A stretch of 64,000 bases of DNA from Minisyncoccota bacterium (GTDB lineage Bacteria; Patescibacteriota; Minisyncoccia; Phycocordibacterales; WO2-35-19): positions 7,755 through 71,754 of the forward strand of contig JBAYKK010000002.1 of NCBI GenBank assembly GCA_041664625.1. Reading direction: 5' to 3'. The notes under the pieces were generated by a model, which was not told the DNA's origin, did no database searches, and saw nothing but the letters and a program-made list of their open reading frames with translations. Each line of letters begins with the position of its first letter. Positions within the stretch are counted from its first letter, which is position 1. A program made the position numbers and the translations under genes. Positions 2,819 through 51,712 of the stretch are shown one piece after another.

Positions 2819-2861
2819 GATGGTAATCTTAGAATAATACATATGGGCTAAAATTTCAATT

Positions 2862-5021
2862 TTACTCCATATGAACTACGTTTTTTGAAGCTATGTATTT
2901 GGCTAGGATCGGGTAGTTTTTTAATTCAAAATCTTCTTCAATTAAAGATCGGGCTTCGGTGCGAGCCGCCTCTACCATTTTGATGTTACGAAGCGCTTCC
3001 ATGGCCAAATCCGAAACACCCCACTGTTTGGCACCAGCCAAATCGCCAGTTCCTCTTTGTTGTAAATCAGCTTCAGCTAATTCAAAACCATTGCTGGAAG
3101 TGCTAAAAGATTTTAATCTGGCGATGGTTTTGGCCGATTTGCTATCAGCAAAAACAAAACAATATGGTTTGAAAGAGCTTCGCAAGACTCGGCCTCGCAG
3201 TTGGTGGAGTTGAGCCAAGCCAAATCGCTCGGCATTTTCAATGATAATGACGGTGGCGTTGGGCACGTTGACCCCCACTTCTATCACTGATGTGGCCACT
3301 AGTATATCTGTTTTGTGATCTTTGAAATCTCGCATTATTTTTTCTTTATCGGCCGGTTTCATTTGCCCAGTGATGGCCGATACTTTGAATTCTGGGAAAA
3401 CTTTATCTTGTAGTCTTTCGGTTTCTGATTTTACAGATTTGGCGTTCAAAGTATTTTCTTTGTCTGGATCAGGATCATTCACTCGCGGGCAAATGACGAA
3501 AACTTGCCGACCAGTTTGAAGCTCTAATCGTACTTTTTCGTAAGTTTCGGCTCTTTCGTGAGGTAAAACTATTTTGGTTTGGGGTAGTTGTCTACCAGGA
3601 GGCAATTCATCAAGTAGAGATAAATCTAGGTCTCCAAAAATAGTTAGAGCTAAGGTGCGAGGTATTGGTGTAGCGGTCATGGAGAGCAAGTGGGGAGCGA
3701 TGTCATGTTTGCGTCTGAGTTGCATACGTTGTTTGACCCCAAACCGATGTTGTTCATCAATTATTATAAGCGCCAAATTTTTAAATTTAACTGTTTTTTG
3801 GATAAGTGAATGGGTGCCGATAAGGATAGGGATTTCACCGTTTTCTACCCATTTCAAAAGTTGAGGTTTTGATATTTTGGTCCAAGTTTCTCTGTTGGTT
3901 TTGGAAGGGAATTTTTTGGCACCACTGCCAGTTATAAGCCCGATTGGCATTTTGTATTTAGCGAAATATTCTATAAAAGATTCAAAATGCTGTTCGGCTA
4001 GTATTTCAGTAGGGGCCATGTAAGCCACTTGCAGATTGCCGAATTCGCGGTTTGGGGGCAAGGTGGAAATAGCGGCGAAACTAGCAGTGGCAGCTACGGC
4101 AGTTTTGCCACTACCCACATCTCCTTCCAAAAGTCGAGACATGGGTGGCCCAGCTTTGAAATCATTTAATACTGCTTCTATTGATTTATTTTGAGCAGAA
4201 GTGAGTGGAAAAGGAAAAGTTTTTACAAATTCTTTTATTTCTTCTGGTTTTTTTGAAATTAAAAAAGATTTTTCTTTGGTTGCTAAATATTTTTCTTTCT
4301 GGCGATCAAGTTGGATGAAAAATATTTCTTCAAAAGCAAATCTTTTCCTCGCAATCTCGGCGTCTTCTTTTTTTCTAGGTGAGTGTATCCAGATCAAAGC
4401 GGTTTTCAAAGATGGTAGGCTATATTTTTTTAAAATATCAGCAGGGATAGGGTCTTCTATATTTTCTAACACTTCACTCCTGAATATTTTTTGCAAACAA
4501 TGATAAATCCAATTGGAAGAAATCCCTCGGCTTTCTGGATAAACCGGAGAAAGATTGAAATTGTCTTCGCCGGGGAACAACGAATCAGAAGTGCCTTCAG
4601 GTATTTCCGTGACTTTTTCTATTTTGGGATTAGAAAAATTAAGACTACCGTCTTTTTTGGCTGAAACTCGGCCTTCTACTCTCACCAACATACCCTCAAA
4701 AAACATTTTGGCGATATAAGGTTGGGAAAACCAAATGATGTTTATTTTACCGGTAGAATCTTCTACTTCGGCTGTTGAAATCGCCACTCTGGATTTGAAA
4801 GTTTTGCCGGTTTTTAATTTTGATATTTTACCAAAAACCACCACGTCTTCGCCGGCATTTAAAAATTCAATAGCTTTCACACTGCCAGCTTCACCGTATC
4901 TGGTAGGGAAGTGCCTTAAAATATCGCTTACTTTTTTGAGAGACATTTTGGCTAATGCCTTTTTTTGAAAAAGTGAGAGTTTTTGGATTGATTCGATAGG
5001 AGTATCTAAATTAATGATCAT
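2862..5021 (-). CDS. recG: ATP-dependent DNA helicase RecG
   Basis: N-terminal wedge/OB region, SF2 helicase motifs (GDVGSGKT, DEQHRFGV, SMTATPIPRTL, QLRGRV), 719 aa. Confidence 0.9.
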   Translation of the reverse strand: MIINLDTPIESIQKLSLFQKKALAKMSLKKVSDILRHFPTRYGEAGSVKAIEFLNAGEDVVVFGKISKLKTGKTFKSRVAISTAEVEDSTGKINIIWFSQPYIAKMFFEGMLVRVEGRVSAKKDGSLNFSNPKIEKVTEIPEGTSDSLFPGEDNFNLSPVYPESRGISSNWIYHCLQKIFRSEVLENIEDPIPADILKKYSLPSLKTALIWIHSPRKKEDAEIARKRFAFEEIFFIQLDRQKEKYLATKEKSFLISKKPEEIKEFVKTFPFPLTSAQNKSIEAVLNDFKAGPPMSRLLEGDVGSGKTAVAATASFAAISTLPPNREFGNLQVAYMAPTEILAEQHFESFIEYFAKYKMPIGLITGSGAKKFPSKTNRETWTKISKPQLLKWVENGEIPILIGTHSLIQKTVKFKNLALIIIDEQHRFGVKQRMQLRRKHDIAPHLLSMTATPIPRTLALTIFGDLDLSLLDELPPGRQLPQTKIVLPHERAETYEKVRLELQTGRQVFVICPRVNDPDPDKENTLNAKSVKSETERLQDKVFPEFKVSAITGQMKPADKEKIMRDFKDHKTDILVATSVIEVGVNVPNATVIIIENAERFGLAQLHQLRGRVLRSSFKPYCFVFADSKSAKTIARLKSFSTSSNGFELAEADLQQRGTGDLAGAKQWGVSDLAMEALRNIKMVEAARTEARSLIEEDFELKNYPILAKYIASKNVVHME

Positions 5022-7456: not shown

Positions 7457-7848
7457 CAGACTCAATAGGAGATTTAATAATAAGGATCAAAAATGCAGGA
7501 AACACTGGTAAACAAAATGTTTCGGTGCCTTTTTCTAAAATGAAATTTGCTGTAGCCGAATTGCTTTCGGCTAAAGGTTTTGTTGGTGAAGTTTCTAAAA
7601 AGGGCAAAGGGGAAGTCTTTAGAACAATCGATATAGACTTGCTTTATACCAAAGACGGGGAGCCCATAATTTCCGGTGTCAAAAGAATATCAAAACCTTC
7701 TAGAAGACTTTATGAGAATTCTAAAAATCTCAAAGCTTTCCGCAAGGGTTATGGTATGTCAGTTTTGTCTACTCCCAAAGGGATTATGGCTGATGTAGAT
7801 GCTAAAAAAGGCAACTTAGGAGGAGAATTGTTATTTAATATTTGGTAG
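7450..7848 (+). CDS. rpsH: 30S ribosomal protein S8
   Basis: [17 protein letters not shown]... classic S8 N-terminus. Confidence 0.9.
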
Positions 7849-7962
7849 TTAAAGATACAAATATGCGAATGTTACAAATGCAACAAATGAATACAAATAA
7901 GAAAAATAGATTCGTAGCTATTAGTATAATTAGTACAATTCGTATATTGGTATCATAATATT

Positions 7963-8496
7963 ATGTCAAGAATAGGAAAAAAAGGAATAGTAATACCGGA
8001 CAAAACAGAAGTCACTATGAATTCTGGTGTTATTTTGGTGAAAGGACCAAAAGGTTCTTTGGAGAAGATTTTTCGTTCTGATATTTTGGTTACTATAAAT
8101 GAAAAAGATATTTCTTTGACTCTAGCTAAAGAAAACAAACAAACCAGGGCTTTGTGGGGAACTTACGCTTCTCATTTGAAAAATATGGTCAAAGGAGTAA
8201 CTGAAGGCTTCGAAAAGAAATTGATTTTGGAAGGAGTGGGTTTCAAATCTCAAGTGACTGGCAACAAACTGATTTTGGCTCTCGGATTTTCTCATCCAGT
8301 AGAGGTGGAGATACCAGAAGGATTGAGCGTAAAAGCCGAAAAAAACATAGTAACCGTATCAGGTATTGATAAAGAATTGGTTGGTAGTTTCTCTGCTAAA
8401 ACTAGAGCATTGAAAAAACCAGAACCATATAAAGGCAAAGGTTTTCGTTATTTTGATGAAGTTATAAGGAGAAAACAAGGTAAACGATCAGTATAA
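7963..8496 (+). CDS. rplF: 50S ribosomal protein L6
   Basis: MSRIGKKGIVIPDKTEVT...VKGPKG motif. Confidence 0.9.
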   Translation: MSRIGKKGIVIPDKTEVTMNSGVILVKGPKGSLEKIFRSDILVTINEKDISLTLAKENKQTRALWGTYASHLKNMVKGVTEGFEKKLILEGVGFKSQVTGNKLILALGFSHPVEVEIPEGLSVKAEKNIVTVSGIDKELVGSFSAKTRALKKPEPYKGKGFRYFDEVIRRKQGKRSV

Positions 8497-8512
8497 TTGA
8501 AAATTAAAAAAC

Positions 8513-8860
8513 ATGGATACCAAAGTTAAAAAAATACAAAGAGAAAGAAGGAAAAAGCGCATCAGAGCCAAGGTTTTTGGTGTGAACGCTAAACCTAGAC
8601 TTTCGGTATTTAGATCAAACAAATACATCACCGCCCAACTTATAGATGACACAAAAGGTTTGACTTTGGCTTCTGCTACTAGTAAGAATATGAAAGGCAA
8701 AAGTGTATTAGAAAAAGCCAAAGCGGTAGGTTCGAGTGTCGCCGAACAAGCCAAAACCAAAAAAATTGAAACAGCAGTGTTTGATAGAGGCGGTTATCTT
8801 TATACTGGTTCAGTCAAAGCGGTGGCTGATGGGGCTAGAGAATCTGGTCTTAAATTTTAA
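8513..8860 (+). CDS. rplR: 50S ribosomal protein L18
   Basis: RKKRIRAKV...PRLSVFRSNKYIYAQLIDD pattern. Confidence 0.9.
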   Translation: MDTKVKKIQRERRKKRIRAKVFGVNAKPRLSVFRSNKYITAQLIDDTKGLTLASATSKNMKGKSVLEKAKAVGSSVAEQAKTKKIETAVFDRGGYLYTGSVKAVADGARESGLKF

Positions 8861-8872
8861 TTAAATAATATT

Positions 8873-9505
8873 ATGCCTAACGAAGAAGAAAAAAAAGAAA
8901 TAGAAGGAATAGAAGAAGCGGTTGAGGAAACCATCATACCTTCTGAAATAGTGAAAGAAGCTTCTCCTGTAGCTCCTATTAATTTTACGCCAAACAACCG
9001 AGATAGACGCAAAAATGAACGCCGACCTTCTCGAAGACCAGAGCGAGCCAGACAAGAATTTGATAATAAAATCATAAGTGTAAGGAGAGTGACTCGTGTG
9101 GTTGCCGGAGGTCGTAGATTCAGTTTCAGTATCGCTATAGTTATCGGTGACAAAAAGGGCCGAGTAGGTGTAGGTATCGGCAAAGCGACAGATACTCCAA
9201 TCGCTATTGAAAAAGCTACTCAAGCAGCCAAAAAAAGCATGATCACTGTACGTTTGAACAAGAAAAATTCTATCAGCCACCCAGTCGAAGCCAAATACTC
9301 AAGCGCAATAGTTTCTATAATGCCGGCTCCAGGGAAGGGGGTGATCGCTGGAAGCGCTACTCGTGTAGTCTTGGAATTGGCTGGAGTGAAAGAAGTTTCT
9401 TCTAAAATCCTTTCCAGATCCAAAAACAAATTGAATATAGCTAGAGCTACCATCCAAGCTCTTCAGCAATTAAAAAATTTAAAGATTGAAAAATTAAAAA
9501 ATTAA
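8873..9505 (+). CDS. rpsE: 30S ribosomal protein S5 with ~60-aa acidic/basic N-terminal extension
   Basis: Core RVTRVVAGGRRFSFSIAIVIGDKKGRVGVGIGKA; extension EEKKEIEGIEE... Confidence 0.9.
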   Translation: MPNEEEKKEIEGIEEAVEETIIPSEIVKEASPVAPINFTPNNRDRRKNERRPSRRPERARQEFDNKIISVRRVTRVVAGGRRFSFSIAIVIGDKKGRVGVGIGKATDTPIAIEKATQAAKKSMITVRLNKKNSISHPVEAKYSSAIVSIMPAPGKGVIAGSATRVVLELAGVKEVSSKILSRSKNKLNIARATIQALQQLKNLKIEKLKN

Positions 9506-41967: not shown

Positions 41968-42000
41968 AAAGCTCAACGACTCTCTCGTTGAGCTTTTTCG
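41968..42000 (+). terminator. rho-independent terminator agctcaacg-actctct-cgttgagct + TTTTT
   Basis: Read directly; ends r-protein transcription unit. Confidence 0.65.
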
Positions 42001-42039
42001 TTAATATACGCGCAAAAACAAGGACTTTTTGCGATTTAG

Positions 42040-42090
42040 TTGACAATCACTTGACAATTGAATACAGATTGGTTTACAATTGACTTGTAA
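42040..42090 (+). promoter_or_regulatory. operator-like region: direct repeats TTGACAAT x2 and perfect palindrome TTACAA-TTGAC-TTGTAA abutting ATG of downstream regulator
   Basis: Read directly at 42040-42047, 42051-42058 and 42074-42090. Confidence 0.4.
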
Positions 42091-43146
42091 ATGAAAAACA
42101 AGGAAAAAATACTAGAGATAATAAACAAACAAGGGAGGGTGACTTCTGCTGAAATCGCCTCTGAATTAGGCGTATCTCGCCAGTATGTAAATATGGTTAT
42201 TTCTGATCTGATTGCTGATAAAAAAATTATTAAAATAGGAGGAACTCGCAATGCCTTTTACATATCTTATACATTTGCAAAAAACCATCCTGAGACATTT
42301 CCTTCTGTATTTAAAAAAACTTATAAGAATCAATCGCTTGAGGAACACAAAGTTTTGGTTGAGATGGAAGAAAAACTTCCTCAAATTTTGAACTTGCCCG
42401 AAAATTTAAAAAGTATCATTACCTTTGCATTTTCTGAAATATTTAATAATGCTATCGAGCACTCACTATCAAAAAATATTTCGGTAGAAGTGGCTATGAG
42501 AGATAATAAACTTTCTTTTATTATTTTAGATTCTGGTATTGGGGTTTTTAGAAATATTATGGAAAAAAGAGGATTACATTCAGAAATTGAAGCTATCCAA
42601 GATCTACTCAAGGGCAAAACTACTACAATGCCAAAATCACATTCAGGTGAAGGTATTTTCTTTACTTCGAAATCGGCAGATTTATTTATTTTAGACAGTT
42701 TCGGCTACCAATTAACCATAAACACAAAGACAGACGGTGTTTCGATTAAAGATGTACCTGTTCTCAAAAAGGGTACACGGGTTATATTTGAAATTGATAC
42801 AAATTCAGAAAGACATCTCAATCAAGTATTCGAGAAATTCACCAATTTGGTGAATGAAGGAGAATATGGTTTTGATAAGACTGAAATCCGAGTCAAACTA
42901 TACACGATGGGCGGTGTGCACATATCACGTTCGCAGGCTCGTAGAATTCTCTCCGGATTAGAAAAATTCAAAATAATATTGTTTGATTTCGAAAATGTTC
43001 CTATTGTTGGACAGGCTTTTGCAGATGAAGTATACAGAGTTTTTCAGCATAAATATCCAGATATTAAACTTGAAGAAGAAAACATGTCCGAGGGTGTCCG
43101 CTTTATGATTGAGCGAGCCAAAAACGAGGTCAAAAAGTCATTGTAA
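42091..43146 (+). CDS. putative regulator: N-terminal HTH + GHKL/anti-sigma-factor-like ATPase + C-terminal DUF4325 (STAS-like)
   Basis: ILEIINKQGRVTSAEIASELGVSRQYVNMVI HTH; AFSEIFNNAIEHS / ILDSGIG N and G1 boxes; C-terminal KIILFDFENVPIVGQAFADEV. Confidence 0.6.
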   Translation: MKNKEKILEIINKQGRVTSAEIASELGVSRQYVNMVISDLIADKKIIKIGGTRNAFYISYTFAKNHPETFPSVFKKTYKNQSLEEHKVLVEMEEKLPQILNLPENLKSIITFAFSEIFNNAIEHSLSKNISVEVAMRDNKLSFIILDSGIGVFRNIMEKRGLHSEIEAIQDLLKGKTTTMPKSHSGEGIFFTSKSADLFILDSFGYQLTINTKTDGVSIKDVPVLKKGTRVIFEIDTNSERHLNQVFEKFTNLVNEGEYGFDKTEIRVKLYTMGGVHISRSQARRILSGLEKFKIILFDFENVPIVGQAFADEVYRVFQHKYPDIKLEEENMSEGVRFMIERAKNEVKKSL

Positions 43147-43194
43147 ATTTGATGAATATTGGGGATACCCAAGCTGTTTTTTGTCGAGGTTAAA

Positions 43195-43222
43195 AATCAT
43201 TCGCCTTGTAAGGAGAATGATT
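43195..43222. repeat. 28-bp palindromic element aatcattc-gccttgtaagga-gaatgatt (left copy)
   Basis: Inverted partner at 43523-43550; together they bracket the ArsR-like gene. Confidence 0.6.
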
Positions 43223-43239
43223 GGGAGTATAATTAGATT

Positions 43240-43515
43240 ATGGTTGCGATCAATTTTAAAGAATTGGAAAAAGAATTTGAAATATTTGCTAACGAGCATC
43301 GGTTAGCGATTCTAAAATGTTTAAAAAATGGCAAAAGTAAATGTGTAGGCGGGATATCGGATGAAATAAATCTCTCTTTTAAAATTACTTCCAAACATCT
43401 GTTGTATTTGGCCGAGCAGGGGATTTTGAGTAGGCACTATGATGGGCCGTTTGTGCTCTATAGTATTTCGGATAATTTATCTAGTTTAAATAAAACGATT
43501 ATTTCATATCTCTAA
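43240..43515 (+). CDS. ArsR/SmtB-family HTH transcriptional regulator-like protein
   Basis: HRLAILKCLKNGKSKCVGGISDEINLSFKITSKHLLYLAEQGIL fits ArsR wHTH pattern. Confidence 0.6.
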   Translation: MVAINFKELEKEFEIFANEHRLAILKCLKNGKSKCVGGISDEINLSFKITSKHLLYLAEQGILSRHYDGPFVLYSISDNLSSLNKTIISYL

Positions 43516-43522
43516 TTCCTCA

Positions 43523-43550
43523 AATCATTCTCCGTGCAAGGCGAATGATT
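43523..43550. repeat. 28-bp palindromic element aatcattc-tccgtgcaaggc-gaatgatt (right copy, inverted)
   Basis: Reverse complement of left copy except central 5 nt. Confidence 0.6.
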
Positions 43551-43719
43551 GGTTGGGCTTTCAAAATGCATAGGTTAGCCCTGTGCATTTTGATTAATGT
43601 CAGTTTGGAAAATGAGGAGAAAAGTTGTAAAATTTGGAGAGATATATTTAGGCCTGCCCGCCACGACTTCGTCATAGGCGATTCGGGTGGGTATATATTT
43701 AAATACTAATTTAAATTTT

Positions 43720-43893
43720 ATGTTAAGAAAAACCGAAGATCAAAATATAAGGAAACTTATGCGCTTGGGCAAAACTTCGCTCGGCATCACTTTGCCGGTC
43801 GCTCTCTTAAACCAGCTCGGCTGGCGCGAGAAGCAAAAACTCGTGGTCAAAAAAGTCCGCGGTGGCCTCACCATCAAAGATTGGCGTAAATAA
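43720..43893 (+). CDS. AbrB/MazE/SpoVT-type DNA-binding protein (antitoxin-like), orphan
   Basis: LGKTSLGITLPVALLNQLGW...LVVKKVRGGLTI resembles swapped-hairpin AbrB domain; start at in-frame ATG 43720. Confidence 0.45.
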   Translation: MLRKTEDQNIRKLMRLGKTSLGITLPVALLNQLGWREKQKLVVKKVRGGLTIKDWRK

Positions 43894-44178
43894 TTCCACC
43901 TTTATTGGAATTTTCCAGAATACCCTGAAGCTTTGTTTCAGGGGTGAATGGAAATGTAAAAGAAGTGTAAGCGGAGCTTGCTCTATACCAACAAAGTTGC
44001 CCTGATGTTGCTTGCCTAATAACCCGTCTGCTTTGCGGCGGGGATTAGGACAAGTAACCAACTTTATTTTTAGGGGTAAATGTGGTAGGGTTTGGGGTAT
44101 TATGATATTGGAGTGCAGACAAAAACTACATATAAAATAAAGGAGATGGATGAGGATTTCTTTGTTGAATAAATTAAT

Positions 44179-45270
44179 ATGAGCAACAATAACCACGAGA
44201 TTATAATTAATAAACAAGATGTTGTTCCATACATCTATTTTGTATGCTCAATGGCTCAGCGAGGCAGGATGTATGGAGGTCTGAGTGGAAAAAGTGATTA
44301 TATTGGAGGGGTATTTGATCGTTGGATTAATATAATACCTGAAAGTGTGATTTTTAATAAATATTTTCTTCCCAAGATAGCAGATAAGCTAGAAGTTATA
44401 TCTGATTATTATGAATATAACCCTAAAAAATCTGGGATTGCCCCAGATGTTTTGGGTGTAAAAATTGGAACAAAAGCAATACCATTTGTTGAATATGTAA
44501 ATAAATGGCAAGCACTAAATGATGCTCCGCAAATTGAAGTTAAATCATTCAAAAAAGGACAATATATGGTTAGTTTGAGAAATCAAGGTTATGACAAGCA
44601 ATATCTTGTGATGGTTGAAACGAATCTTGATAGCGACTATTTATTGCCTTTTTTCGAGGAAATTGCTACTAGCGAAGATATTTATAACAAATTAAAAATG
44701 GATGATAGTGTTTTCATTAAAAAAAATGAGAATAAAGATTTATCACCAGTCACAAAGATCAGGCGAGATAACACAAATTTGGGTTCTCTAAAACTTATTA
44801 CAGTTTGTTTGGCGAGTGACTTTATGCAATATTCAAACTTATGCAAAGGAGGAGAAAGTCCATTTTATATAAAAGAGATAAATATAACTCGTACTCCAAA
44901 AAAATTCCCGCGAGCATTATCTTTTTCAAATTTAGTAAATAAAAATAATAATAATGATATATATAAATGGAATGGAAAAAATATGTTAGATAAAAATATA
45001 AAACATAAATTACTTGATATTTATATTGAAAATATAGGTAAAATTCAATTTTTAAAAAATAGTAAAAGCTCGATCACAATCCACACAATTGGTAACGCGC
45101 AAATAAATAACACTGTATTAGAAGCAAATAAAACTTATATCGTGAAGCTCCAATTACTAGATAGATCCAAATCAAAGGGTGGTGAATATTTTATGCATAA
45201 ATCGATCATTGATAAAATTCCAAGCAAGGAGGATATTATGATTGACAATATAAGTAAATATATAAAATAA
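44179..45270 (+). CDS. hypothetical protein; candidate type II restriction endonuclease partner of adjacent m5C methyltransferase
   Basis: 363 aa, very AT-rich codon usage, convergent and 5 bp from MTase gene; no motif confidently recognised. Confidence 0.4.
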   Translation: MSNNNHEIIINKQDVVPYIYFVCSMAQRGRMYGGLSGKSDYIGGVFDRWINIIPESVIFNKYFLPKIADKLEVISDYYEYNPKKSGIAPDVLGVKIGTKAIPFVEYVNKWQALNDAPQIEVKSFKKGQYMVSLRNQGYDKQYLVMVETNLDSDYLLPFFEEIATSEDIYNKLKMDDSVFIKKNENKDLSPVTKIRRDNTNLGSLKLITVCLASDFMQYSNLCKGGESPFYIKEINITRTPKKFPRALSFSNLVNKNNNNDIYKWNGKNMLDKNIKHKLLDIYIENIGKIQFLKNSKSSITIHTIGNAQINNTVLEANKTYIVKLQLLDRSKSKGGEYFMHKSIIDKIPSKEDIMIDNISKYIK

Positions 45271-45275
45271 TTTTC

Positions 45276-46856
45276 TTACTCCATCGCTTTCATCATTTGC
45301 TTTGCTACAGCCTCAACAACAGGGACACTTACAGAATTTCCTGCTTGTTTGTATAATGATGAATCCGAAATTTTAGGTAAAATATATCCCTTAGGGAAAC
45401 CTTGTATTCTAAAACATTCTAGTGGTGTGAGTTTTCTTATACCTTTTTTGTCTTTAATAATTGGCACATTATGTCCGCCAGTACCCATGTTTGCGGTTAA
45501 AGTAGGGCATACACCGCTTTTATTTTCTCTCACATACTGTCTACGCCACTGGTATACTTTACCTTCTTCTCTAACAAAATTTTTTAGTCTGTCAAAAAGT
45601 GGTTTGCCGTTATAGTAGTATTTTTCCGGAACATTTTTTTCTAGTAAATTAGTGATTTTTTTGGTTAATTCAACCGACTCTGGGAATGAAAAATTGTCCG
45701 AATGCTCCTTATTTTTAAAACCAACGATATACACACGCTCCCTGTTTTGAGGAACATTCCCATATTCCATTGTGTTTAAAACTTTATATTTAATATGATA
45801 ACCAAAACCTTCCAGTGTTTCTCTGATTACTCGGAAAGTTTTCCCTTCATCATGGCTTGCTAAATTTTTTACATTTTCCAACAAAAATCCTTGTGGTTTT
45901 CTTGCCTCAATTATCCTCGCTATATCAAAAAATAAATTTCCTCTACCTTTTTCATCCTTAAAACCTTGCCTGTATCCTGCAATTGAAAATGCCTGACATG
46001 GAAATCCACCCAAAAGGAAATCAAATTCCGGTAAATCATCTATTCCTATTTTTCGTATATCCTCCACCACAAGTTTGGATGTTGGAAAATTCAAATCATA
46101 TGTCTTTTTACAATTTGGCTCAAAATCATTTGAAAAAACAGTTTCAAAACCAGCTTGCTCAAATCCAAGTCTTATTCCACCAACACCAGCAAAAAGATCT
46201 ATCGTTCCAAAGTTACTTTTAGATTTTGTTTTTGTTGGAGCAATTTTTAAATTATTAATATTGCGGATTACTTGAGCGACAACTCCTCGCACCTCCACCT
46301 CTTTTCTATAAATAGGGAAGAGAGTAGGGTTTGCGGGCTGGAGCCTAAATCTGCCATCTTCGCGGTACAACTTTTTTAAAGTAGTTTGATCTTCGTCAAT
46401 AATAGCGACTACAGTTTGACCATTTTCGGCAACTGATTGTTTTTTAATAACGACAACATCACCATCAAAAATTCCTTCATCTATCATGCTGTCGCCTGCC
46501 ACTCTCAAAGCGTAATAGCCATTCGAATTTCGAATGCTAGGATTCACAATTGAGATAGTTTCCTGATGATCCTCTATCACTTCAATTGGTTGCCCAGCAG
46601 CTATTGTCCCAATGATTGGGATTTTTACAAGTAAGTCGGTGTATTTAACATCAATTGAACGCTTCTGATTTTTTTTGTTTTTTTCTAAATGGCCAGCTTT
46701 TCTCATTTCCTCAACATGCTGGTGGATTGTAGATACAGACCGCAGTTTTAGTTTTTTCTTTATTTCTTCTAGAGAAGGGGAATAACCTTTGTTTTCAGAG
46801 TAAAGGTTTATAAAGTCCAGTATTTTCTTTTTTTGTGGAGTTAAACTTTTTTGCAT
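45276..46856 (-). CDS. LexA repressor (wHTH + S24 self-cleaving peptidase) fused to C-terminal DNA (cytosine-5)-methyltransferase
   Basis: N-term: IPIIGTIAAGQP (Ala-Gly cleavage site), RVAGDSMIDEGIFDGD (Ser), NGQTVVAIIDEDQTTLKKL (Lys), VIRNI; C-term: motif I DLFAGVGG, IV GFPCQAFS, VI ENV, VIII QNRERV, X GNSVSVPV; one continuous 526-aa ORF. Confidence 0.8.
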   Translation of the reverse strand: MQKSLTPQKKKILDFINLYSENKGYSPSLEEIKKKLKLRSVSTIHQHVEEMRKAGHLEKNKKNQKRSIDVKYTDLLVKIPIIGTIAAGQPIEVIEDHQETISIVNPSIRNSNGYYALRVAGDSMIDEGIFDGDVVVIKKQSVAENGQTVVAIIDEDQTTLKKLYREDGRFRLQPANPTLFPIYRKEVEVRGVVAQVIRNINNLKIAPTKTKSKSNFGTIDLFAGVGGIRLGFEQAGFETVFSNDFEPNCKKTYDLNFPTSKLVVEDIRKIGIDDLPEFDFLLGGFPCQAFSIAGYRQGFKDEKGRGNLFFDIARIIEARKPQGFLLENVKNLASHDEGKTFRVIRETLEGFGYHIKYKVLNTMEYGNVPQNRERVYIVGFKNKEHSDNFSFPESVELTKKITNLLEKNVPEKYYYNGKPLFDRLKNFVREEGKVYQWRRQYVRENKSGVCPTLTANMGTGGHNVPIIKDKKGIRKLTPLECFRIQGFPKGYILPKISDSSLYKQAGNSVSVPVVEAVAKQMMKAME

Positions 46857-46987
46857 ATGTTTATTATAAATTCTATTTGTTTATAGACCTAAAAAATCTG
46901 TGGATAACTTTCGGTTTTCTTTCGGTATTTATATAATGATTATGGTATAATACAAAAATTACAGGTAATTAAAAAATATTTTGATAC

Positions 46988-47677
46988 ATGGAATATAATT
47001 TACAAATTGAATTTATAAGTAGAAGGGGAGGAGTATTAGGACTATTTATTAAATCAGATGTCATACAGACTTTACCTTTTGAATTTGGTTTTAGACTAAA
47101 GAATATAGGTAATGAACCTATTAAGAATATAAATGTTTCTAATATTTTTTGGAAATCAGCTAATGGACAAGATATTGTTTTTAATGCAAACAAAAAATAC
47201 TATTTTGATATAATAAATCCAGGAGAAGAAATAGAGAGGTGGGTAGAAAAAGTTGGCACTTATGCTCATGGACTTTGTAATTTTAATTTGGGCGTAAAAT
47301 CAATTGACCCTAAAATTCTAGTTAAAACTTTCCAGGTTGATCCTTTTACAAAGAACTCTAGTTTTTGTGCGGACAACAATTTTGTAGACTTCTTTTTTGT
47401 AAGGAGTAAAAATGAATATGAGCAAAATTCGGCTAATAATTATATGTTACTTTTCGCGGTAATAACAACTGTTCTAACTGTTTTTACTTTTTATTTAAAC
47501 AAGCAACAGGTTTATTATACGGAAGTACAGAGTAGATCTGAACGAATTATCCAAGCTAGACAAGAATTAGAAGCGATTGAGCGTTGCAAACAATCGCCAG
47601 AATTAGAAGATTCTGGTCTATACGACACTTCTAGTGGAAAGCCCGCATCATGCAAAGAAGTACTTTCAGGGAGATAA
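46988..47677 (+). CDS. hypothetical protein with C-terminal TM segment
   Basis: 229 aa ORF. Confidence 0.5.
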   Translation: MEYNLQIEFISRRGGVLGLFIKSDVIQTLPFEFGFRLKNIGNEPIKNINVSNIFWKSANGQDIVFNANKKYYFDIINPGEEIERWVEKVGTYAHGLCNFNLGVKSIDPKILVKTFQVDPFTKNSSFCADNNFVDFFFVRSKNEYEQNSANNYMLLFAVITTVLTVFTFYLNKQQVYYTEVQSRSERIIQARQELEAIERCKQSPELEDSGLYDTSSGKPASCKEVLSGR

Positions 47678-47704
47678 AACTCTAAATAAAGTTTTTAAAT
47701 ATGT

Positions 47705-47754
47705 AGTCCGAATTTGGCTAAAATGTCATTTGACATTTTAGCCAAATTCGGACT
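47705..47754. repeat. perfect 50-bp palindrome (24-bp arms agtccgaatttggctaaaatgtca / tgacattttagccaaattcggact, 2-nt centre)
   Basis: Read directly; covers the start codon region of the downstream ORF. Confidence 0.85.
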
Positions 47755-48211
47755 TGAAAACAAGATTACAAGCCAACAAATTTGTGTTGAAAGTAATAAT
47801 TTAGAAATAGATACCAGTGATCTTTTGGAAAACATAAAAATATTGTTACAATATATTATATCACAAAAATCTAAATTAAGAAATAAATATATGGGATTAT
47901 TTGAATGGGGAGAAAAAAGATTTGCTCGTGGAATAGCAAAAGCTATGATACGAAGTTATAAATTATATAAAAAAACTTATCCAAATTTAAGTGAATTTGA
48001 ATTAATAAAAAATACATTGTCTGATCGTCCTGGTGATCCGGCCAAAAAATTACTCAATGATATTGAAGATGAAAATTTTTACCAAGATATTGGTGGTAAT
48101 TTTTTTGAAATCACGTATGTACTGATTCGTCTCGAATATATTGAATATATGCACGGAACATTAGATGAAGAAGATAAAAAACGAACGCAGTTTTTAGGAA
48201 TGTTCTCTTAG
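47723..48211 (+). CDS. hypothetical protein (track start 47714 is TTG; ATG 47723 preferred)
   Basis: ORF-track frame; MSFDILAKFGL... Confidence 0.5.
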   Translation: MSFDILAKFGLENKITSQQICVESNNLEIDTSDLLENIKILLQYIISQKSKLRNKYMGLFEWGEKRFARGIAKAMIRSYKLYKKTYPNLSEFELIKNTLSDRPGDPAKKLLNDIEDENFYQDIGGNFFEITYVLIRLEYIEYMHGTLDEEDKKRTQFLGMFS

Positions 48212-48233
48212 AAGAATTAGAAAAAGCAAATTT

Positions 48234-48479
48234 ATGAACAATACTGAAGTTTGTCCGATTTGTCAGAAACCTTACACTGATAAAAATATAAAAGTTGAGT
48301 ATCACTTAAGATATAATCCCATTCCAAAAACTATACATGCTTGTCAGGCCTGTAATTATGCAGAATTTTTGACAAGACATTGGAAAAGACATCTAAAACC
48401 CTGGCAATGGTGGAGAATAGCACGAGTTAGAGAATTTAATAAAGAAAACGGATATTTATTTGATAAAATAACTACCTAA
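48234..48479 (+). CDS. small zinc-ribbon protein, hypothetical
   Basis: CPICQ...CQAC Cys pairs. Confidence 0.5.
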   Translation: MNNTEVCPICQKPYTDKNIKVEYHLRYNPIPKTIHACQACNYAEFLTRHWKRHLKPWQWWRIARVREFNKENGYLFDKITT

Positions 48480-48500
48480 ATATATATTTAAATAAAACTT

Positions 48501-49157
48501 ATGAAATTACTACTTACATCGGGGGGATTGACCAATAAAAAAATAGTGGAGGCGCTGTTTGATTTGGTGGGGAAGAAACCAGAAGATACTTCGCTGGTTT
48601 TTATACCAACTGCCGCTAATGTGGAAAAAGGAGATAAGGGGTGGCTTATAGATGATTTGAAAAATTTGCAGAAGCAAAATTTTAAGCAAATAGATATTGC
48701 TGATATTTCCGCTGTTCCAGAAAGTGTTTGGAAGCCAAAATTTGAAGAAGCGGACGTAATGTTTTTTGAGGGTGGCAATACCTATCACCTGATGGAATGG
48801 ATAAACAAATCGGGACTTGTAAAATTATTGCCGGAATATCTAAAAACAAAAGTGTGGGTGGGTTTAAGCGCCGGAAGCATGGTTACGAATCCGGATTTGG
48901 CTAGAAAAATTTCCCAAGTGGTATATGAAGAAGATTTCGATAAGGACAGAGATATGGAAGGTCTTAATTATGTAGATTTTTATTTTCTACCCCATCTAAA
49001 CTCCCCATATTTTCCTCTGCTTAAGGAAAAAAATATCAGAAAAGCAACAAAGGATATGGTTAAAAAAGTTTACGCGATGGATGACCAATCGGCTTTAAAA
49101 GTGGTTGATGGAAAAATTGAAGTTGTAAGTGAGGGTAAGTGGTTTGTTATAAATTAA
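48501..49157 (+). CDS. peptidase E-like (S51 family / class I glutamine amidotransferase-like)
   Basis: LLTSGG..., GGNTYHLM, VGLSAGSMV (Ser nucleophile context). Confidence 0.65.
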   Translation: MKLLLTSGGLTNKKIVEALFDLVGKKPEDTSLVFIPTAANVEKGDKGWLIDDLKNLQKQNFKQIDIADISAVPESVWKPKFEEADVMFFEGGNTYHLMEWINKSGLVKLLPEYLKTKVWVGLSAGSMVTNPDLARKISQVVYEEDFDKDRDMEGLNYVDFYFLPHLNSPYFPLLKEKNIRKATKDMVKKVYAMDDQSALKVVDGKIEVVSEGKWFVIN

Positions 49158-49168
49158 TCTCTAACGGG

Positions 49169-49414
49169 ATGAAAAAATTGGAAATTGGTGGATTGTATGA
49201 GCATTATAAGGGGACGAAGGTGAGGGTGATTTGCGAAGCGACACACTCGGAGACTTTGGAACCGATGGTGGTTTATATGCATCTGGAAGATGGGGGAATG
49301 TGGGCTCGGCCTAGAAAGATGTTTTTGGAAACTATTATAAAAAATGGTAAAAAAGTGGAGCGGTTTAAAAAAATAAACCAGAAGCTTTCAATAAAGCCAA
49401 ATAAGAGAAAATAA
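49169..49414 (+). CDS. DUF1653-like small protein
   Basis: LYEHYKGTKVRVI...SETLEPMVVYMHLEDGGMWARP pattern; internal ATG chosen to avoid overlap. Confidence 0.5.
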   Translation: MKKLEIGGLYEHYKGTKVRVICEATHSETLEPMVVYMHLEDGGMWARPRKMFLETIIKNGKKVERFKKINQKLSIKPNKRK

Positions 49415-49561
49415 ATTTTTAAAATCAAACATATTTGAAGTAATTAAAAAATGAAAGTTATCAACATCTGGTACTTTTATTGGGTAGAAAATTATATAAT
49501 TAAGCTAGTTAATAAGACTCAATACATATTTACAAAGCAAGTAGAATGTATTATTATATAG

Positions 49562-50068
49562 ATGACTAATAAAAACAAAACTATGGCGGAATTAAATAAA
49601 TTAAAATATAGAAATGCAATTTTGTATTTTATAAAATATTGCAACAATAAATATTTGGGGGCGACAAAACTCAATAAGCTTTTGTATTATTTAGATTTTA
49701 TAAATTACCGAGACAGACAAATGTCTGTTACTGGGGATTTTTATATTCACAATAATTACGGACCGACCCCGATTGAAGTCGAAAGAATAATTTCTGAAAT
49801 GAAAGACAAAGAAATAAATATAAAGGAAGATCCTTTTGAAAATTCGCGCAAGATTTCTTTTGAGTTAAAAAAAGGAGTAGATGTTGATGAAACGCTTTTT
49901 AGCGAAGAAGAAAAAGAATTATTAAAAAGTATTTGCAAAGAATTTTCAGATTGGTCTACAGAAAAAATTGTTGAGCAAACCCACTTGGAATCTCCTTGGT
50001 TTTATTCAAAACCTTTTGAAAAAGTTGATTACAAATATTCGTCTGACATAGATTTTTTTACCGAATAG
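49562..50068 (+). CDS. Panacea-domain (DUF4065) antitoxin-like protein
   Basis: KLNKLLYYLDF...GDFYIHNNYGPTPIEV matches DUF4065/SocA-like pattern. Confidence 0.55.
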   Translation: MTNKNKTMAELNKLKYRNAILYFIKYCNNKYLGATKLNKLLYYLDFINYRDRQMSVTGDFYIHNNYGPTPIEVERIISEMKDKEINIKEDPFENSRKISFELKKGVDVDETLFSEEEKELLKSICKEFSDWSTEKIVEQTHLESPWFYSKPFEKVDYKYSSDIDFFTE

Positions 50069-50072
50069 ACTT

Positions 50073-50471
50073 ATGGAAATCGAATGGGATGTTATTGAAA
50101 CAGAGAATTTCATTCGTTCTTGCGAACGAAACAATGTATCCCAGGAAGTGAAAGAGTCTTTGAGGGTATGGGCTAAGTCAGTGAGAAGACAGATAACACC
50201 AAGAAATGCAAGGCCATTTATTTCTCCTCGTAATATTTTTGAAATATGGATAGCGGGAATCGGAAACCCTGATACTAATAAAGGCAAAAGTGGGGGTTAT
50301 CGTTTTATGTATTATATTTTGATTTCTGAAAAGAAATTGGTTATAGATATAATAGAAGAAAGGAACGATTTAAAATTTAAGGGCTCAAGCGGTAAAAAAC
50401 AAAAAAATTGGGATAAGCATTTTATTGAGCTAAAAAAGGAACTTCTAAATAAATACGAAAAATTAAAATAA
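50073..50471 (+). CDS. RelE/ParE-superfamily toxin-like protein
   Basis: GKSGGYRFMYYILISEKKLVIDIIEERNDL resembles RelE/ParE core; 4 bp after antitoxin gene. Confidence 0.45.
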   Translation: MEIEWDVIETENFIRSCERNNVSQEVKESLRVWAKSVRRQITPRNARPFISPRNIFEIWIAGIGNPDTNKGKSGGYRFMYYILISEKKLVIDIIEERNDLKFKGSSGKKQKNWDKHFIELKKELLNKYEKLK

Positions 50472-50524
50472 CTACTTAAATATATATTTAAATCACATGA
50501 AAAAATTATAACTAATTAAATACA

Positions 50525-50845
50525 ATGTTTGAAAAATTTTTTGGGCCAAAAAATGAAGAGGAAGTGGAAAGAGCTCTTTTTGAGGTGGGGAGCAAGGAAT
50601 TAGAGGTTGGGGTAAATGGTCCCACAATGTTCCATGCGTTTAATGCGATGAGGGAGGAGAATAAGAAAAAAGGATATGGTTTTACTAATAACCATATCTT
50701 GAAGGTGGTCAGAGAGTGTGCTTTTGGACATGTTTCTGAAATTGAGGATTCATTAATGGGTGGGCGAGATGAAGTGTATAAAAAGATTGATTCAGAGATT
50801 GAAAGGTTGCATCAAGATTTACCAGAATCAGAGCGAGGGGTTTAA
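50525..50845 (+). CDS. hypothetical protein
   Basis: 106 aa ORF. Confidence 0.4.
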   Translation: MFEKFFGPKNEEEVERALFEVGSKELEVGVNGPTMFHAFNAMREENKKKGYGFTNNHILKVVRECAFGHVSEIEDSLMGGRDEVYKKIDSEIERLHQDLPESERGV

Positions 50846-51059
50846 GAAAAGAAAAATTATTCTAAAAAAGGAAATAAATTTATGGTCATAGATATAGAAC
50901 TCACATTGAATAGGTTTGGATTAGGAAAGATTGCCGAGAATAAATTTCAATTTTTTTGGTTGAGGTTTTCTAAGTGGCAGATCCCAGGAAAATATTCAAT
51001 TTCTTTTGAAATAAACTGGAAGATGAAAGATAAATAAGAGATAAAATGCTGCTATTAGT

Positions 51060-51330
51060 TGGGGGAATGGTACTTGTCATGGGTCTCAAGGGAAGCATCG
51101 CTTCCCGGTGGCTGGAAACTTTCCAGCGAAGGGTTCATGCGCTTTCGGCCCGGACCTCGTGCGGCAGCAGGTGAGCCACAGCTTATCCTGCGGCATCCGA
51201 AAATTCGGCACACCCAGTTTGTGTCGGAATTCTGGATGATCGGCACACAGCCGACGATCCGCCTTGGAGTTCAATTCTCCAAGTAAATCAAAACCCCCGT
51301 CTCTTCAAGGAGAGCGGGGGTTTTCTCATT
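51060..51330 (+). ncRNA. GC-rich structured non-coding region of unknown identity ending in intrinsic terminator
   Basis: Three mutually overlapping stop-free frames (non-coding signature), hairpins gggaagc-atc-gcttccc, ctggaaa/tttccag, ccgaa-aa-ttcgg, T-arm-like TGGAG-TTCAATT-CTCCA, terminator aaacccccgtctc-ttcaag-gagagcgggggttt+TCTC. Confidence 0.35.
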
Positions 51331-51349
51331 AAAATGTTATAATAAGTTT

Positions 51350-51712
51350 ATGGAATTAAATAAATTAACTGCAGAGGAAAAGAAAGTGATAATTGATAAG
51401 GGCACTGAAGCGCCTTTTTTGGGTGAGTATGTCAACAATAAAGCCACTGGAGTATATGTTTGCAGACAGTGCGAGGCGCCTTTGTATAATTCTCAAGATA
51501 AATTTGAGAGCAGTTGCGGTTGGCCGAGTTTTGATGATGAAATAGAGGGGGCAGTCAAGCATGTGCCCGATGCAGACCAGGTGCGAACTGAGATTATTTG
51601 TGCTCGTTGCGGTGGACATTTGGGTCATGTATTTTTGGGGGAAAATTTGACTGATAAAAATATTCGACATTGTGTCAATTCGATCTCATTAAAATTTGTT
51701 AGTGGGCGATAA
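51350..51712 (+). CDS. msrB: peptide methionine sulfoxide reductase MsrB
   Basis: [31 protein letters not shown] zinc/catalytic Cys motifs. Confidence 0.85.

Follow-up and report, generated by a model that had tools for sequence, protein, structure and literature searches.

The window analysed here is a 64-kb stretch of DNA from an uncultivated (CPR/Patescibacteria) bacterium. It carries, on the minus strand, an ORF with an ATG start that encodes in a single frame a full-length LexA joined by a variable linker to a complete C5 DNA methyltransferase (MTase). A candidate restriction endonuclease (REase) gene converges on this fusion gene, and a divergent ORF of unknown function shares its 131-bp control region (Table 1). 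The locus lies in a defence/TA island. An Rfam search of the window returned only two tRNAs, and nothing was found for a GC-rich, ORF-free stretch (50850-51360).

Table 1. Coordinates of the features at the LexA-MTase locus (positions within the 64-kb window)
Position	Strand	Feature	Basis
45276..46856	-	LexA-C5 DNA methyltransferase fusion gene (526 aa)	ORF; three Pfam domains; lexA and dcm NCBIfam models above cutoff; identical protein in independent assemblies
46677..46850	-	LexA winged-HTH DNA-binding domain (aa 3-60); recognition helix S42-T43-I44-H45-Q46-H47, Gln46 at nt 46719-46721	PF01726; residue 46 co-varies with the operator half-site in 122/122 loci
46593..46598	-	Codons for the predicted scissile bond Ala87-Gly88	Ala 193/193 and Gly 192/193 across LexA-MTase modules; invariant in 78 C5-family members
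46278..46619	-	S24 peptidase / LexA C-terminal domain (aa 80-193); Ser123 (46488-46490) and Lys161 (46374-46376)	PF00717; Ser 193/193, Lys 191/193
46206..46256	-	Variable K/T/S-rich linker (aa 201-217)	Lowest column conservation of the protein (0.50 against 0.77-0.87 elsewhere)
45291..46205	-	C5 cytosine MTase domain (aa 218-522); catalytic PCQ at 45993-46007; target-recognition region (TRD) around aa 425-475	PF00145; M.HhaI; TRD consensus identical whatever the REase partner
46909..46926	+	Predicted operator, direct repeat TTTCGGT-N4-TTTCGGT (half-sites 46909-46915 and 46920-46926; 11-bp period); reverse-oriented relative to the fusion gene	Only exact TTCGG-N6-TTCGG and only position-matrix hit in the window; same repeat at the promoter of about 150 related genes; co-varies with helix residue 46
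46899..46907	-	Perfect DnaA-box consensus 9-mer TTATCCACA abutting the operator	Perfect box in 88 of 133 related promoters at a fixed 72-77 nt from the ATG, against a background of 0.004 per 170 bp
46928..46955	-	Predicted promoter of the fusion gene: -35 TTGTAT (46955-46950), 16-nt spacer, -10 TATAAA (46933-46928), abutting the operator	Read from the sequence; same geometry (-10 followed by a reverse-oriented repeat) in related loci L041, L087, L097, L098, L102 and L145-L166
46857..46898	-	Leader, partly conserved with the family leader (...CAAATAGA..TTTaTAAT..A.ATATG)	Comparison of upstream regions
44179..45270	+	Candidate restriction endonuclease (363 aa), convergent, 5-bp gap to the stop of the fusion gene	
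44101..44172	+	Remnant (last ~23 codons plus stop) of an Mrr-like restriction endonuclease gene, just upstream of the REase candidate	91% identical to the C-terminus of the intact Mrr_cat gene at the same place in related locus L025; preceded by stop codons in frame
46988..47677	+	Divergent 229-aa ORF of unknown function sharing the 131-bp control region; membership uncertain	ORF; no Pfam or NCBIfam hit; found only on contigs identical to the window; operator and DnaA box co-oriented with it

The observation made in the first-pass annotation, that a complete LexA is fused in one ORF to a Dcm-type MTase, was confirmed. A profile scan had been named there as a test, with a generic HTH lacking the S24 dyad as the outcome that would count against the fusion. 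Instead, Pfam identified LexA_DNA_bind (44.7 bits, cutoff 23.7), Peptidase_S24 (96 bits, E 1.6e-27) and DNA_methylase (313.8 bits, E 2e-93). The NCBIfam lexA equivalog TIGR00498 matched at 164.9 bits against a cutoff of 110.95, covering model positions 2-202 of 203, and TIGR00675 (dcm) matched at 342 bits. The motifs that the annotation had named were all present at the expected places, including IAAGQP (aa 85-90), GDSM (121-124), TLKKL (159-163), MTase motif I (220-227), PCQ (284-288), ENV (327-329), QNRER (370-374) and motif X (506-511). The conserved C5 MTase motifs I (FxGxG), IV (PCQ), VI (ENV), VIII (QxRxR) and X are present, with a TRD between VIII and IX. Solved full-length LexA proteins aligned end to end (3k2z: aa 5-198 against 3-194 of 196; 1jhh), and M.HhaI aligned over the whole MTase part (E 5e-57). 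The 5-bp distance to the neighbouring ORF was also as described.

A frameshift or stop separating two genes would likewise have contradicted the fusion, and continuity of the frame was therefore examined. The identical 526-aa protein is encoded on four contigs from independent sources (an NCBI/JGI 192-kb contig, ENA ERZ27249449, and Logan SRR18595301 and SRR6484324). Moreover, more than 100 homologues at 64-75% identity keep the same uninterrupted three-domain frame, and the linker varies in sequence but never contains a stop. A frameshift or assembly artefact is therefore excluded for practical purposes.

The fusion belongs to a large, apparently undescribed class, and at least 465 species-level CPR genomes encode the same fusion. 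The nearest relatives of its LexA module are all N-terminal modules of other DNA MTases, covering the N6/N4, Dam, Eco57I/TaqI, MmeI and C5 families, and the fused modules form a clade of their own, apart from ordinary LexAs. Short, close hits turned out to be truncated fusions, and the named nearest stand-alone LexAs are from non-CPR taxa; no conclusion on the origin of the module was reached. A phage origin was also considered, but a scan of IMG/VR found no fusion, only three weak stand-alone LexA hits. Although the LexA-MTase modules otherwise diverge to about 30% overall identity, the cleavage site and the Ser/Lys dyad are essentially invariant in 193 of them (Table 1), which shows purifying selection on self-cleavage and not merely on DNA binding.

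The R-M layout proposed in the first-pass annotation was supported. The tail-to-tail slot is filled in 77 of 83 loci by seven alternative gene families, three of which are recognisable nucleases (RE_Bsp6I in 26 loci, NgoFVII-like in 7 loci, and PD-(D/E)XK). Other fusion classes pair with MvaI/BcnI and PvuII-like genes, whereas the ~465-488-aa N6/N4 fusions are followed co-directionally by a second MTase, so the convergent arrangement is not universal. The 363-aa partner in the window belongs to an uncharacterised family with an invariant PD...EVK motif, but Pfam, PADLOC and Foldseek searches with it were negative, so its assignment as an REase is indirect and whether a cognate endonuclease gene adjoins the MTase gene is left undecided. 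Many relatives carry an Xre-type C gene directly upstream of R (HTH_3, E 1e-12, in at least 16 C5-family relatives, and in many loci of other classes), and many control R through a separate C protein; the window's system has no C gene. The partner families point to GCNGC specificity: M.Bsp6I targets GCNGC (PMC2790894), and GCNGC is the most depleted short palindrome in the 80 pooled loci (observed/expected 0.58) and in the window (0.65). Methylation and cleavage of this sequence were not measured, and the specificity is inferred.

The fusions carry a conserved promoter cassette, consisting of a perfect DnaA-box 9-mer plus an 11-bp-period direct repeat ([T/G]TTC-N7-[T/G]TTC) over the core promoter. 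In about 150 related genes, the repeat lies in the -35/-10 spacer or directly after the -10, and it has the same geometry as the documented alphaproteobacterial LexA box GTTC-N7-GTTC (PMC4951493). Half-site positions 5-6 co-vary with helix residue 46 (GG with E/Q, 78/78; (T/G)A with F/H/Y, 41/41; GC with K/S, 3/3), corresponding to about 8 concordant switches on a tree built without the helix. Binding of the module to a repeated operator at its own promoter is thus supported, by comparative evidence only. A palindromic LexA box in 46857-46987, which had been suggested as something to look for, was not found; the conserved element is a direct repeat. The window's cassette was first read as inverted towards the neighbouring ORF, but this reading was dropped because a reverse-oriented operator directly after the -10 is a recurrent layout in other loci. 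Because the operator is co-oriented with the divergent 229-aa ORF, which promoter or promoters it controls is uncertain, and control of that ORF remains possible. A promoter and terminator consensus scan was not above shuffled expectation and was not used as evidence, and the promoter is therefore a prediction.

No second operator site was detected. As had also been proposed for checking, the region upstream of the REase gene was examined, and it has no matching site. The position matrix hit only the fusion's own promoter in the window and in about 0.8 Mb of flanking DNA, with no second site in the window or in ±6 kb of 80 loci, and one-mismatch matches in the window were at chance level (4 against 3.05 expected). 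Control of a multi-gene SOS regulon was therefore not supported, although whole genomes were not covered and this evidence is limited. The search for a second lexA and for recA, also named beforehand, found neither in the window; no recA was seen in the fetched loci, which is a small sample, and the only additional S24 regulator was found near the fusion in related locus L055. With no second operator site found, the module looks like a local autoregulator and not the SOS master regulator.

We propose, with moderate confidence, that the fusion is the modification subunit of a Type II R-M system, probably specific for GCNGC, which is autorepressed and relieved by RecA-stimulated self-cleavage. 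In this view, a dimer held together by the S24 domains would bind the direct repeat overlapping its own core promoter and keep methylase synthesis low, as in the SsoII/EcoRII-type methylases that carry repressor domains. When RecA filaments form on single-stranded DNA, after exogenous damage or after the system's own endonuclease cuts under-methylated chromosomal sites, the Ser123/Lys161 dyad would cut the Ala87-Gly88 bond. The wHTH would be detached, the promoter derepressed, and methylase output would rise until protection is restored. Stronger transcription into the convergent endonuclease gene (no intervening terminator) may also lower restriction at the same time. The result would be a damage-resettable switch back to a 'high M, low R' state, that is, a restriction-alleviation or anti-autoimmunity loop, and self-restriction is a recognised cost of Type II systems (PMC12707154). 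The class of fusions as a whole probably lets these systems adjust self-protection when the cell's DNA is damaged.

The analysis itself shows the architecture, the conservation of the cleavage apparatus, the R-M context, the position of the operator and its co-variation with the recognition helix, whereas repression, RecA dependence, activity of the cleaved S24-MTase product, interference with R and GCNGC specificity are inferred. The interpretation in the first-pass annotation, which wired the R-M system to the RecA/SOS signal, was only partly supported; this wiring and the direction of the effect are inferred from conservation only, and there is no experimental evidence for binding, cleavage or induction. 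In E. coli, both LexA cleavage fragments are degraded, and if this also applies here, the S24-MTase product could be lost rather than increased. In addition, the interference step cannot be general, given the co-directional N6/N4 fusions.

Among the alternatives, a RecA-independent autoregulator or timer survives best but seems unlikely. The LexA module would then serve only as a dimeric autorepressor that orders expression (M first, R later) when the system enters a new cell, and self-cleavage would be slow, intrinsic turnover. Autorepression by MTase-fused DNA-binding domains is an established way to control R-M systems (SsoII, Ecl18kI and EcoRII; PMC12707154), the cassette moves horizontally with REase partners being swapped, so that establishment in new hosts is frequent, and RecA was not observed here. 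However, a plain HTH would be enough for autorepression, and near-perfect retention of Ala-Gly, Ser and Lys indicates that regulated cleavage is the selected property. In every characterised LexA, that cleavage is RecA*-stimulated.

Damage-triggered suicide (abortive infection) is somewhat less likely still. Here, self-cleavage would destabilise or inactivate the methylase through degradation of the S24-MTase fragment, and after phage-induced or other DNA damage, protection would lapse and the stable endonuclease would kill the cell. The conserved cleavage apparatus and the location in a defence/TA island fit this model. LexA fragments are protease substrates in E. coli, and the new C-terminus ...I-A-A resembles the LexA/ssrA-type ClpX signal. 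R-M systems can also kill by loss of modification, i.e. post-segregational killing (PMC12707154). However, cleavage removes the repressor's DNA-binding domain, so new full-length methylase would be made at a higher rate, which opposes loss of protection, and the operator position argues that the primary role is autorepression. Moreover, nothing indicates that the MTase needs the wHTH for activity, as the MTase domain is complete and the linker is variable.

The suggestion that the fusion might be the cell's only LexA, physically coupling the SOS regulon to the R-M system, was not supported and is very unlikely. It passes the lexA equivalog cutoff, NCBI names these proteins 'transcriptional repressor LexA', and the window holds no second lexA. 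Against this, the operator was found only at the fusion's own promoter in the window and in about 0.8 Mb of flanking DNA, operator specificity differs between fusions, two copies occur on one Vogelbacteria contig, one genome has a separate S24 regulator nearby, occurrence is patchy and island-like with REase cassette exchange, and the fused modules form a clade of their own in which every close relative is fused to an MTase. The joining of separate lexA and dcm genes by a sequencing or assembly error has no evidence in its favour and is refuted by the comparative data above.

Several characterised systems resemble parts of this locus. M.SsoII, M.Ecl18kI, M.EcoRII and M.MspI are C5 MTases that carry an N-terminal DNA-binding domain and repress their own promoter through an overlapping operator (PMC12707154), and the fusion shares an N-terminal DNA-binding domain with an operator, here predicted, in its own promoter. 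Those domains are short HTH regions with no protease, whereas here a whole LexA (wHTH, S24 and scissile bond) adds a cleavable, signal-responsive switch. Pfam assigned the region to LexA_DNA_bind and Peptidase_S24 and not to an Xre-type HTH; no direct comparison with M.SsoII was made. The SsoII and Ecl18kI genes are divergent with overlapping promoters, whereas the genes here are convergent, and the same module is also fused to N6/N4, Dam-like, Eco57I/TaqI-like and MmeI-like MTases. The SOS repressor LexA (E. coli 1JHH/3JSO, T. maritima 3K2Z, and the alphaproteobacterial protein) matches over its full length, including the Ala-Gly site and the Ser/Lys dyad, and has a site at its own promoter, but here LexA is covalently attached to an enzyme and its operator specificity diversifies between paralogous cassettes. 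In C protein-regulated Type II systems (PvuII, AhdI, Esp1396I and Csp231I), a dedicated transcription factor times and balances M and R, whereas the LexA module controls the M side and can be inactivated by proteolysis; C proteins are not known to sense DNA damage. Restriction alleviation of Type I systems in E. coli, by ClpXP-dependent degradation of HsdR, has conceptually the same outcome of lowering restriction pressure on the host chromosome when DNA is damaged or unmodified sites appear, but by proteolysis of the nuclease subunit and not by the proposed derepression of the methylase. Bsp6I and Fnu4HI (GCNGC) and NgoFVII (GCSGC) are related through partner genes, but M.Bsp6I and M.NgoFVII have no LexA module. 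No description of LexA-MTase fusions was found in the literature searched, although a mention in the one paper on the Patescibacteria SOS network (Sanchez-Osuna et al. 2017, Environ Microbiol 19:3465), which was not covered, is not excluded, and a 2025 review of R-M regulation (PMC12707154) never mentions LexA.

A broader reading, which is possible but doubtful on present evidence, is that LexA-MTase fusions are a CPR-wide, previously unrecognised regulatory invention, in which a portable cassette (DnaA box, direct-repeat operator and cleavable LexA) can be attached to any class of DNA methylase. It would combine a replication signal (DnaA) with a damage signal (RecA*), so that a Type II R-M system senses its own autoimmunity: double-strand breaks made by its nuclease would trigger cleavage of the repressor moiety and a burst of methylase. 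This would be the first built-in SOS-coupled restriction-alleviation loop for Type II systems, with the MTase as the stable core around which interchangeable nucleases are swapped.

How Type II systems avoid killing their own host after DNA damage, repair synthesis or a shortfall in methylation is poorly understood, and damage-induced restriction alleviation is established only for Type I systems. A methylase carrying a complete LexA gives a concrete, testable molecular link between the RecA/SOS signal and R-M control. For LexA biology, the fusion shows the repressor used as a portable, cleavable module on an enzyme, with operator specificity diversifying through one helix residue (Gln/Glu versus Phe/His/Tyr at position 46), a natural specificity series that could be exploited and that provides orthogonal, damage-inducible repressor/operator pairs for engineering. 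Automated annotation of these proteins as 'transcriptional repressor LexA' will mislead SOS-regulon reconstructions in CPR genomes. Because the fusion is common, occurring in hundreds of CPR species and with every MTase class, it may be a main regulatory mode in a lineage that reportedly relies heavily on R-M for defence.

The minus-strand ORF of 526 aa with an ATG start was present as described in the first-pass annotation, and the observation of a LexA repressor fused in one frame to a C5 DNA methyltransferase (MTase) was confirmed. A scan with domain models, which had been named in advance as a way to expose a merely generic HTH, placed the Pfam domains LexA_DNA_bind at aa 3-60, Peptidase_S24 at aa 80-193 and DNA_methylase at aa 218-522, with E-values of 1e-11, 2e-27 and 2e-93, respectively. 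The curated NCBIfam lexA equivalog model was matched over positions 2-202 of 203 at 164.9 bits (cutoff 110.95), and the dcm model scored 342 bits. Solved full-length LexA proteins aligned end to end, and M.HhaI aligned over the whole MTase part. All the LexA and MTase motifs that the first-pass annotation had named were found at the places it had assigned, and the convergent 363-aa ORF ends 5 bp from the stop of the fusion. A frameshift or stop separating two genes had been raised beforehand as a possible refutation. The identical protein is encoded on four contigs from independent data sets, and hundreds of diverged homologues keep the frame. The fusion is therefore real.

A search of one genome per GTDB species found at least 465 species that encode a relative. 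The best 80 are all full-length fusions at 64-75% identity and come from many CPR/Patescibacteria lineages, namely Nomura-, Taylor-, Giovannoni-, Vogel-, Zambryskii-, Uhr-, Falkow-, Morani-, Staskawicz-, Nealson- and Shapirobacteria. NCBI names these proteins 'transcriptional repressor LexA', whereas JGI names them 'DNA (cytosine-5)-methyltransferase 1'. One 86-kb Vogelbacteria contig (CAIRHC010000009.1) carries two different copies of the LexA-C5 MTase fusion near its two ends (loci L013 and L034), which have different endonuclease partner families but the same operator type, so cross-regulation between them is possible.

The LexA part alone was then used to search a library clustered at 50% identity. 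The top ~60 hits (44-59% identity) were almost all long proteins (279-890 aa) with the LexA module at the N-terminus, and ordinary ~200-aa LexAs appeared only at about 45% identity or less. All 53 representatives examined carry LexA_DNA_bind and Peptidase_S24, and their C-termini are N6_N4_Mtase (31), Eco57I-type (7), D12/Dam-type (5), N6_Mtase (5), C5 (4) and MmeI-type (4). Short hits of similar closeness are truncated fusions, and the named members are again Patescibacteria. One representative of 777 aa (P0258) carries a LexA module followed by two methyltransferase modules, a C5 module with a PPCQ motif and a second with an NPPF motif. In the 90%-identity cluster of a 512-aa LexA-Dam-type fusion (P0243), some members are annotated as 338-aa 'DNA adenine methylase' lacking the LexA part, which may be miscalled starts or genuine unfused variants. 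In locus L055, a stand-alone 192-aa S24 regulator, with Ala-Gly, GDSM and Lys present but an N-terminus not matched by LexA_DNA_bind, sits directly upstream of a 524-aa SPPY-type DNA methyltransferase, about 2.6 kb from the fusion, and may be an unfused counterpart of the same theme. The window protein thus belongs to a broad class of LexA-DNA methyltransferase fusions, and the LexA modules of that class form a group of their own.

Among 78 C5-family members, Ala87, Gly88, Ser123 and Lys161 are invariant. The S24 core is nearly as conserved as the MTase motifs, whereas the linker is the least conserved part. Across 193 modules from all classes, Ala87 is kept in 193, Gly88 in 192, Ser123 in 193 and Lys161 in 191, the two exceptions for Lys161 being alignment gaps. 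A DNA-binding or dimerisation role alone would not require this, indicating that the cleavage apparatus is under selection.

Upstream of nearly all C5-family genes lies a conserved cassette consisting of (C)TGTGGATAAC, a -35-like TTGnnn, the direct repeat TTTCGGT-N4-TTCGGT filling the spacer, TATAAT and a conserved leader. The same design accompanies the LexA module on other MTase classes in two layouts, in which the repeat is either co-oriented in the spacer or reverse-oriented directly after the -10. The window has the second layout. The first-pass annotation had proposed looking here for a LexA-box-like palindrome, but the element found is a direct repeat. It has the 11-bp period of the documented alphaproteobacterial LexA box GTTC-N7-GTTC (PMC4951493), and some loci read literally GTTCGGT-N4-GTTCGGT. 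The divergent 229-aa ORF shares the 131-bp control region and has no family match but a hydrophobic segment near aa 165-185. Because the operator/DnaA-box cassette is co-oriented with this ORF, it may be co-regulated by the fusion.

The half-site sequence differs between subfamilies and tracks one residue of the recognition helix (S42-T-I-H-Q46-H). TTTCGGT goes with Glu/Gln in 78/78 loci, TTTC(T/G)AT with Phe/His/Tyr in 41/41 and GTTCGCT with Lys/Ser in 3/3, with exceptions to family membership in both directions. On a neighbour-joining tree of the modules built without the helix, both characters need about 8 changes, and the two characters agree on all 122 leaves. This is good comparative evidence that the repeat is the cognate operator. 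A position matrix for the operator hit only the fusion's own promoter, with nothing else in the 64-kb window or in ±6 kb of 80 loci. The module therefore looks like a local autoregulator.

The element TGTGGATAA is the exact reverse complement of the DnaA-box consensus TTATCCACA. A perfect copy lies within 170 nt upstream of the start in 88 of 133 loci (100 if one mismatch is allowed), at a fixed 72-77 nt from the ATG, compared with a background of 0.004 per 170 bp in the same loci (about 175-fold enrichment). The 9-mer is thus a fixed part of the LexA-MTase promoter cassette, seen in the window and among the promoters of loci L004-L166. It stays constant while the operator half-sites change, so it is presumably read by a host factor and not by the LexA module. 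DnaA is the obvious candidate, although its binding was not examined, and the presence of the box suggests that the methylase gene is also tied to DnaA and replication.

In 77 of 83 loci, a convergent ORF ends within a few bp of the fusion's stop. These ORFs fall into seven families with no BLAST-level similarity to one another: RE_Bsp6I-like (26 loci; PADLOC REase_II, E 1e-25), the window's 363-aa family (15 loci), NgoFVII-like (7 loci; PADLOC REase_II, E 8e-104), PD-(D/E)XK_5 (7 loci) and three unassigned families. M.Bsp6I targets GCNGC (PMC2790894). NgoFVII cuts GCSGC. The target-recognition region of the MTase has the same consensus whatever the partner, so seven REase families share one MTase specificity region. 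GCNGC-type words are the most depleted short palindromes in the pooled loci (observed/expected 0.58) and in the window (0.65). GCNGC specificity is thus likely, but the evidence is indirect.

Partners are exchanged freely, as the nearest-neighbour fusion has the same partner family in only 23 of 73 cases. Two loci with 97% identical fusions, L031 and L040, carry a Bsp6I-like gene and a 363-aa-family gene, respectively, and DNA homology breaks exactly after the fusion's stop and resumes beyond the R gene, indicating exchange of the endonuclease gene as a precise cassette. In these two loci, the module (one upstream gene, fusion, REase and C) is bracketed by 131-250-nt inverted repeats that are 97-98% complementary, with a tRNA-Ser gene next to the right arm in L031. 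This looks island-like or mobile, whereas the window has no such repeats.

Other fusion classes pair with MvaI/BcnI-type or PvuII-like genes or are followed by a second MTase. A conserved Xre/HTH_3 controller-type (C) gene lies directly upstream of the R gene in at least 16 C5-family loci (among them L027, L069, L031, L038, L040, L022 and L005) and in many loci of other fusion classes, so that the LexA-M gene converges on R preceded by C. The window's system lacks this gene. Just upstream of its candidate R gene lies a 23-codon remnant of an Mrr-like (Mrr_cat) restriction endonuclease gene that is intact at the same place in locus L025. The GC-richer stretch before the remnant has no ORF and no assigned function, and it contains one of only two GCNGC sites near the locus.

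The R-M pair sits in a low-GC (0.29-0.34) variable/defence island that follows a ribosomal-protein gene block ending at L5. The island also holds an HTH+HATPase+DUF4325 protein, an ArsR-type regulator flanked by 28-nt inverted repeats, a MazE/AbrB-like ORF, a peptidase S51, DUF1653, and a Panacea (SocA-like) antitoxin with a likely toxin. A perfect 24-nt inverted repeat with a 2-nt spacer (AGTCCGAATTTGGCTAAAATGTCA / TGACATTTTAGCCAAATTCGGACT) spans the start of a further ORF. Between the island and msrB, a GC-rich (~0.46) stretch has no convincing ORF, only overlapping short ORFs on both strands, and gave no Rfam match even at a permissive threshold.

Coordinates of the features in the window and in the related loci (L025, L031, L040 and L055)
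Sequence	Feature	Position	Strand
Window	LexA-C5 MTase fusion ORF (526 aa)	45276-46856	-
Window	ATG of the fusion	46856-46854	
Window	Leader (42 nt)	46857-46898	
Window	DnaA-box 9-mer TTATCCACA	46907-46899	
Window	Predicted operator half-sites	46926-46920 and 46915-46909	
Window	Predicted -10 TATAAA	46933-46928	
Window	Predicted -35 TTGTAT	46955-46950	
Window	Divergent 229-aa ORF	46988-47677	
Window	Convergent 363-aa ORF (candidate R gene)	44179-45270	+
Window	Remnant of Mrr-like gene	44101-44172	
Window	GC-richer stretch without ORF	43894-44100	
Window	GCNGC site in that stretch	44035	
Window	Low-GC variable/defence island	~42000-51000	
Window	28-nt inverted repeats flanking ArsR-type regulator	43195-43222 / 43523-43550	
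Window	Panacea (SocA-like) antitoxin	49562-50068	
Window	Likely toxin	50073-50471	
Window	Perfect 24-nt inverted repeat	47705-47754	
Window	ORF whose start the repeat spans	47714-48211	
Window	GC-rich stretch without convincing ORF	51055-51290	
L025	Intact Mrr-like gene	8699-9421	
L031	Exchanged endonuclease gene	7573-8145	
L040	Exchanged endonuclease gene	7573-8655	
L031	Inverted repeats bracketing the module	4505-4757 / 8437-8688	
L040	Inverted repeats bracketing the module	4766-4896 / 8942-9072	
L055	Stand-alone S24 regulator and SPPY-type MTase	2796-3374 and 1176-2750	- and -

In the best-supported reading, the fusion represses its own promoter through the direct-repeat operator, and RecA*-stimulated cleavage at Ala87-Gly88 then detaches the wHTH, derepresses the gene and raises methylase output. 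Whereas the fusion, the conservation of its cleavage residues and the comparative support for the operator come from the analysis itself, repression, RecA dependence and the fate of the S24-MTase product are all inferred. With a 5-bp tail-to-tail junction and no intervening terminator, stronger M transcription could also interfere with R, although this last step cannot be general because some classes are arranged differently. The mechanism would protect a chromosome that is being repaired or that is being cut by the system's own nuclease, and self-restriction is a recognised cost of efficient Type II systems (PMC12707154).

The main rivals are a RecA-independent timer and a damage-triggered loss of methylase leading to suicide. 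The idea of a global SOS repressor is much less likely, as the operator distribution in the window and in ±6 kb of 80 loci, the multiple copies per genome and the diversified specificities argue against it. The interpretation in the first-pass annotation was supported in part, being largely right except for the palindrome and the speculation that this could be the cell's only LexA.

Functionally, the closest systems are the C5 MTases with fused repressor domains (SsoII, Ecl18kI and EcoRII). By sequence, the N-terminal 200 residues show every defining feature of LexA that could be examined except control of a regulon. Literature searches found no description of a LexA-MTase fusion, although they did not extend to the text of the one paper on the Patescibacteria SOS network, and a comprehensive 2025 review of R-M biology does not contain the word LexA. 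An autorepressor borne on an MTase is already known, whereas what is new here is that it comes with an inferred self-cleaving damage sensor. The finding generalises well beyond the window, and the fusion is widespread and modular.
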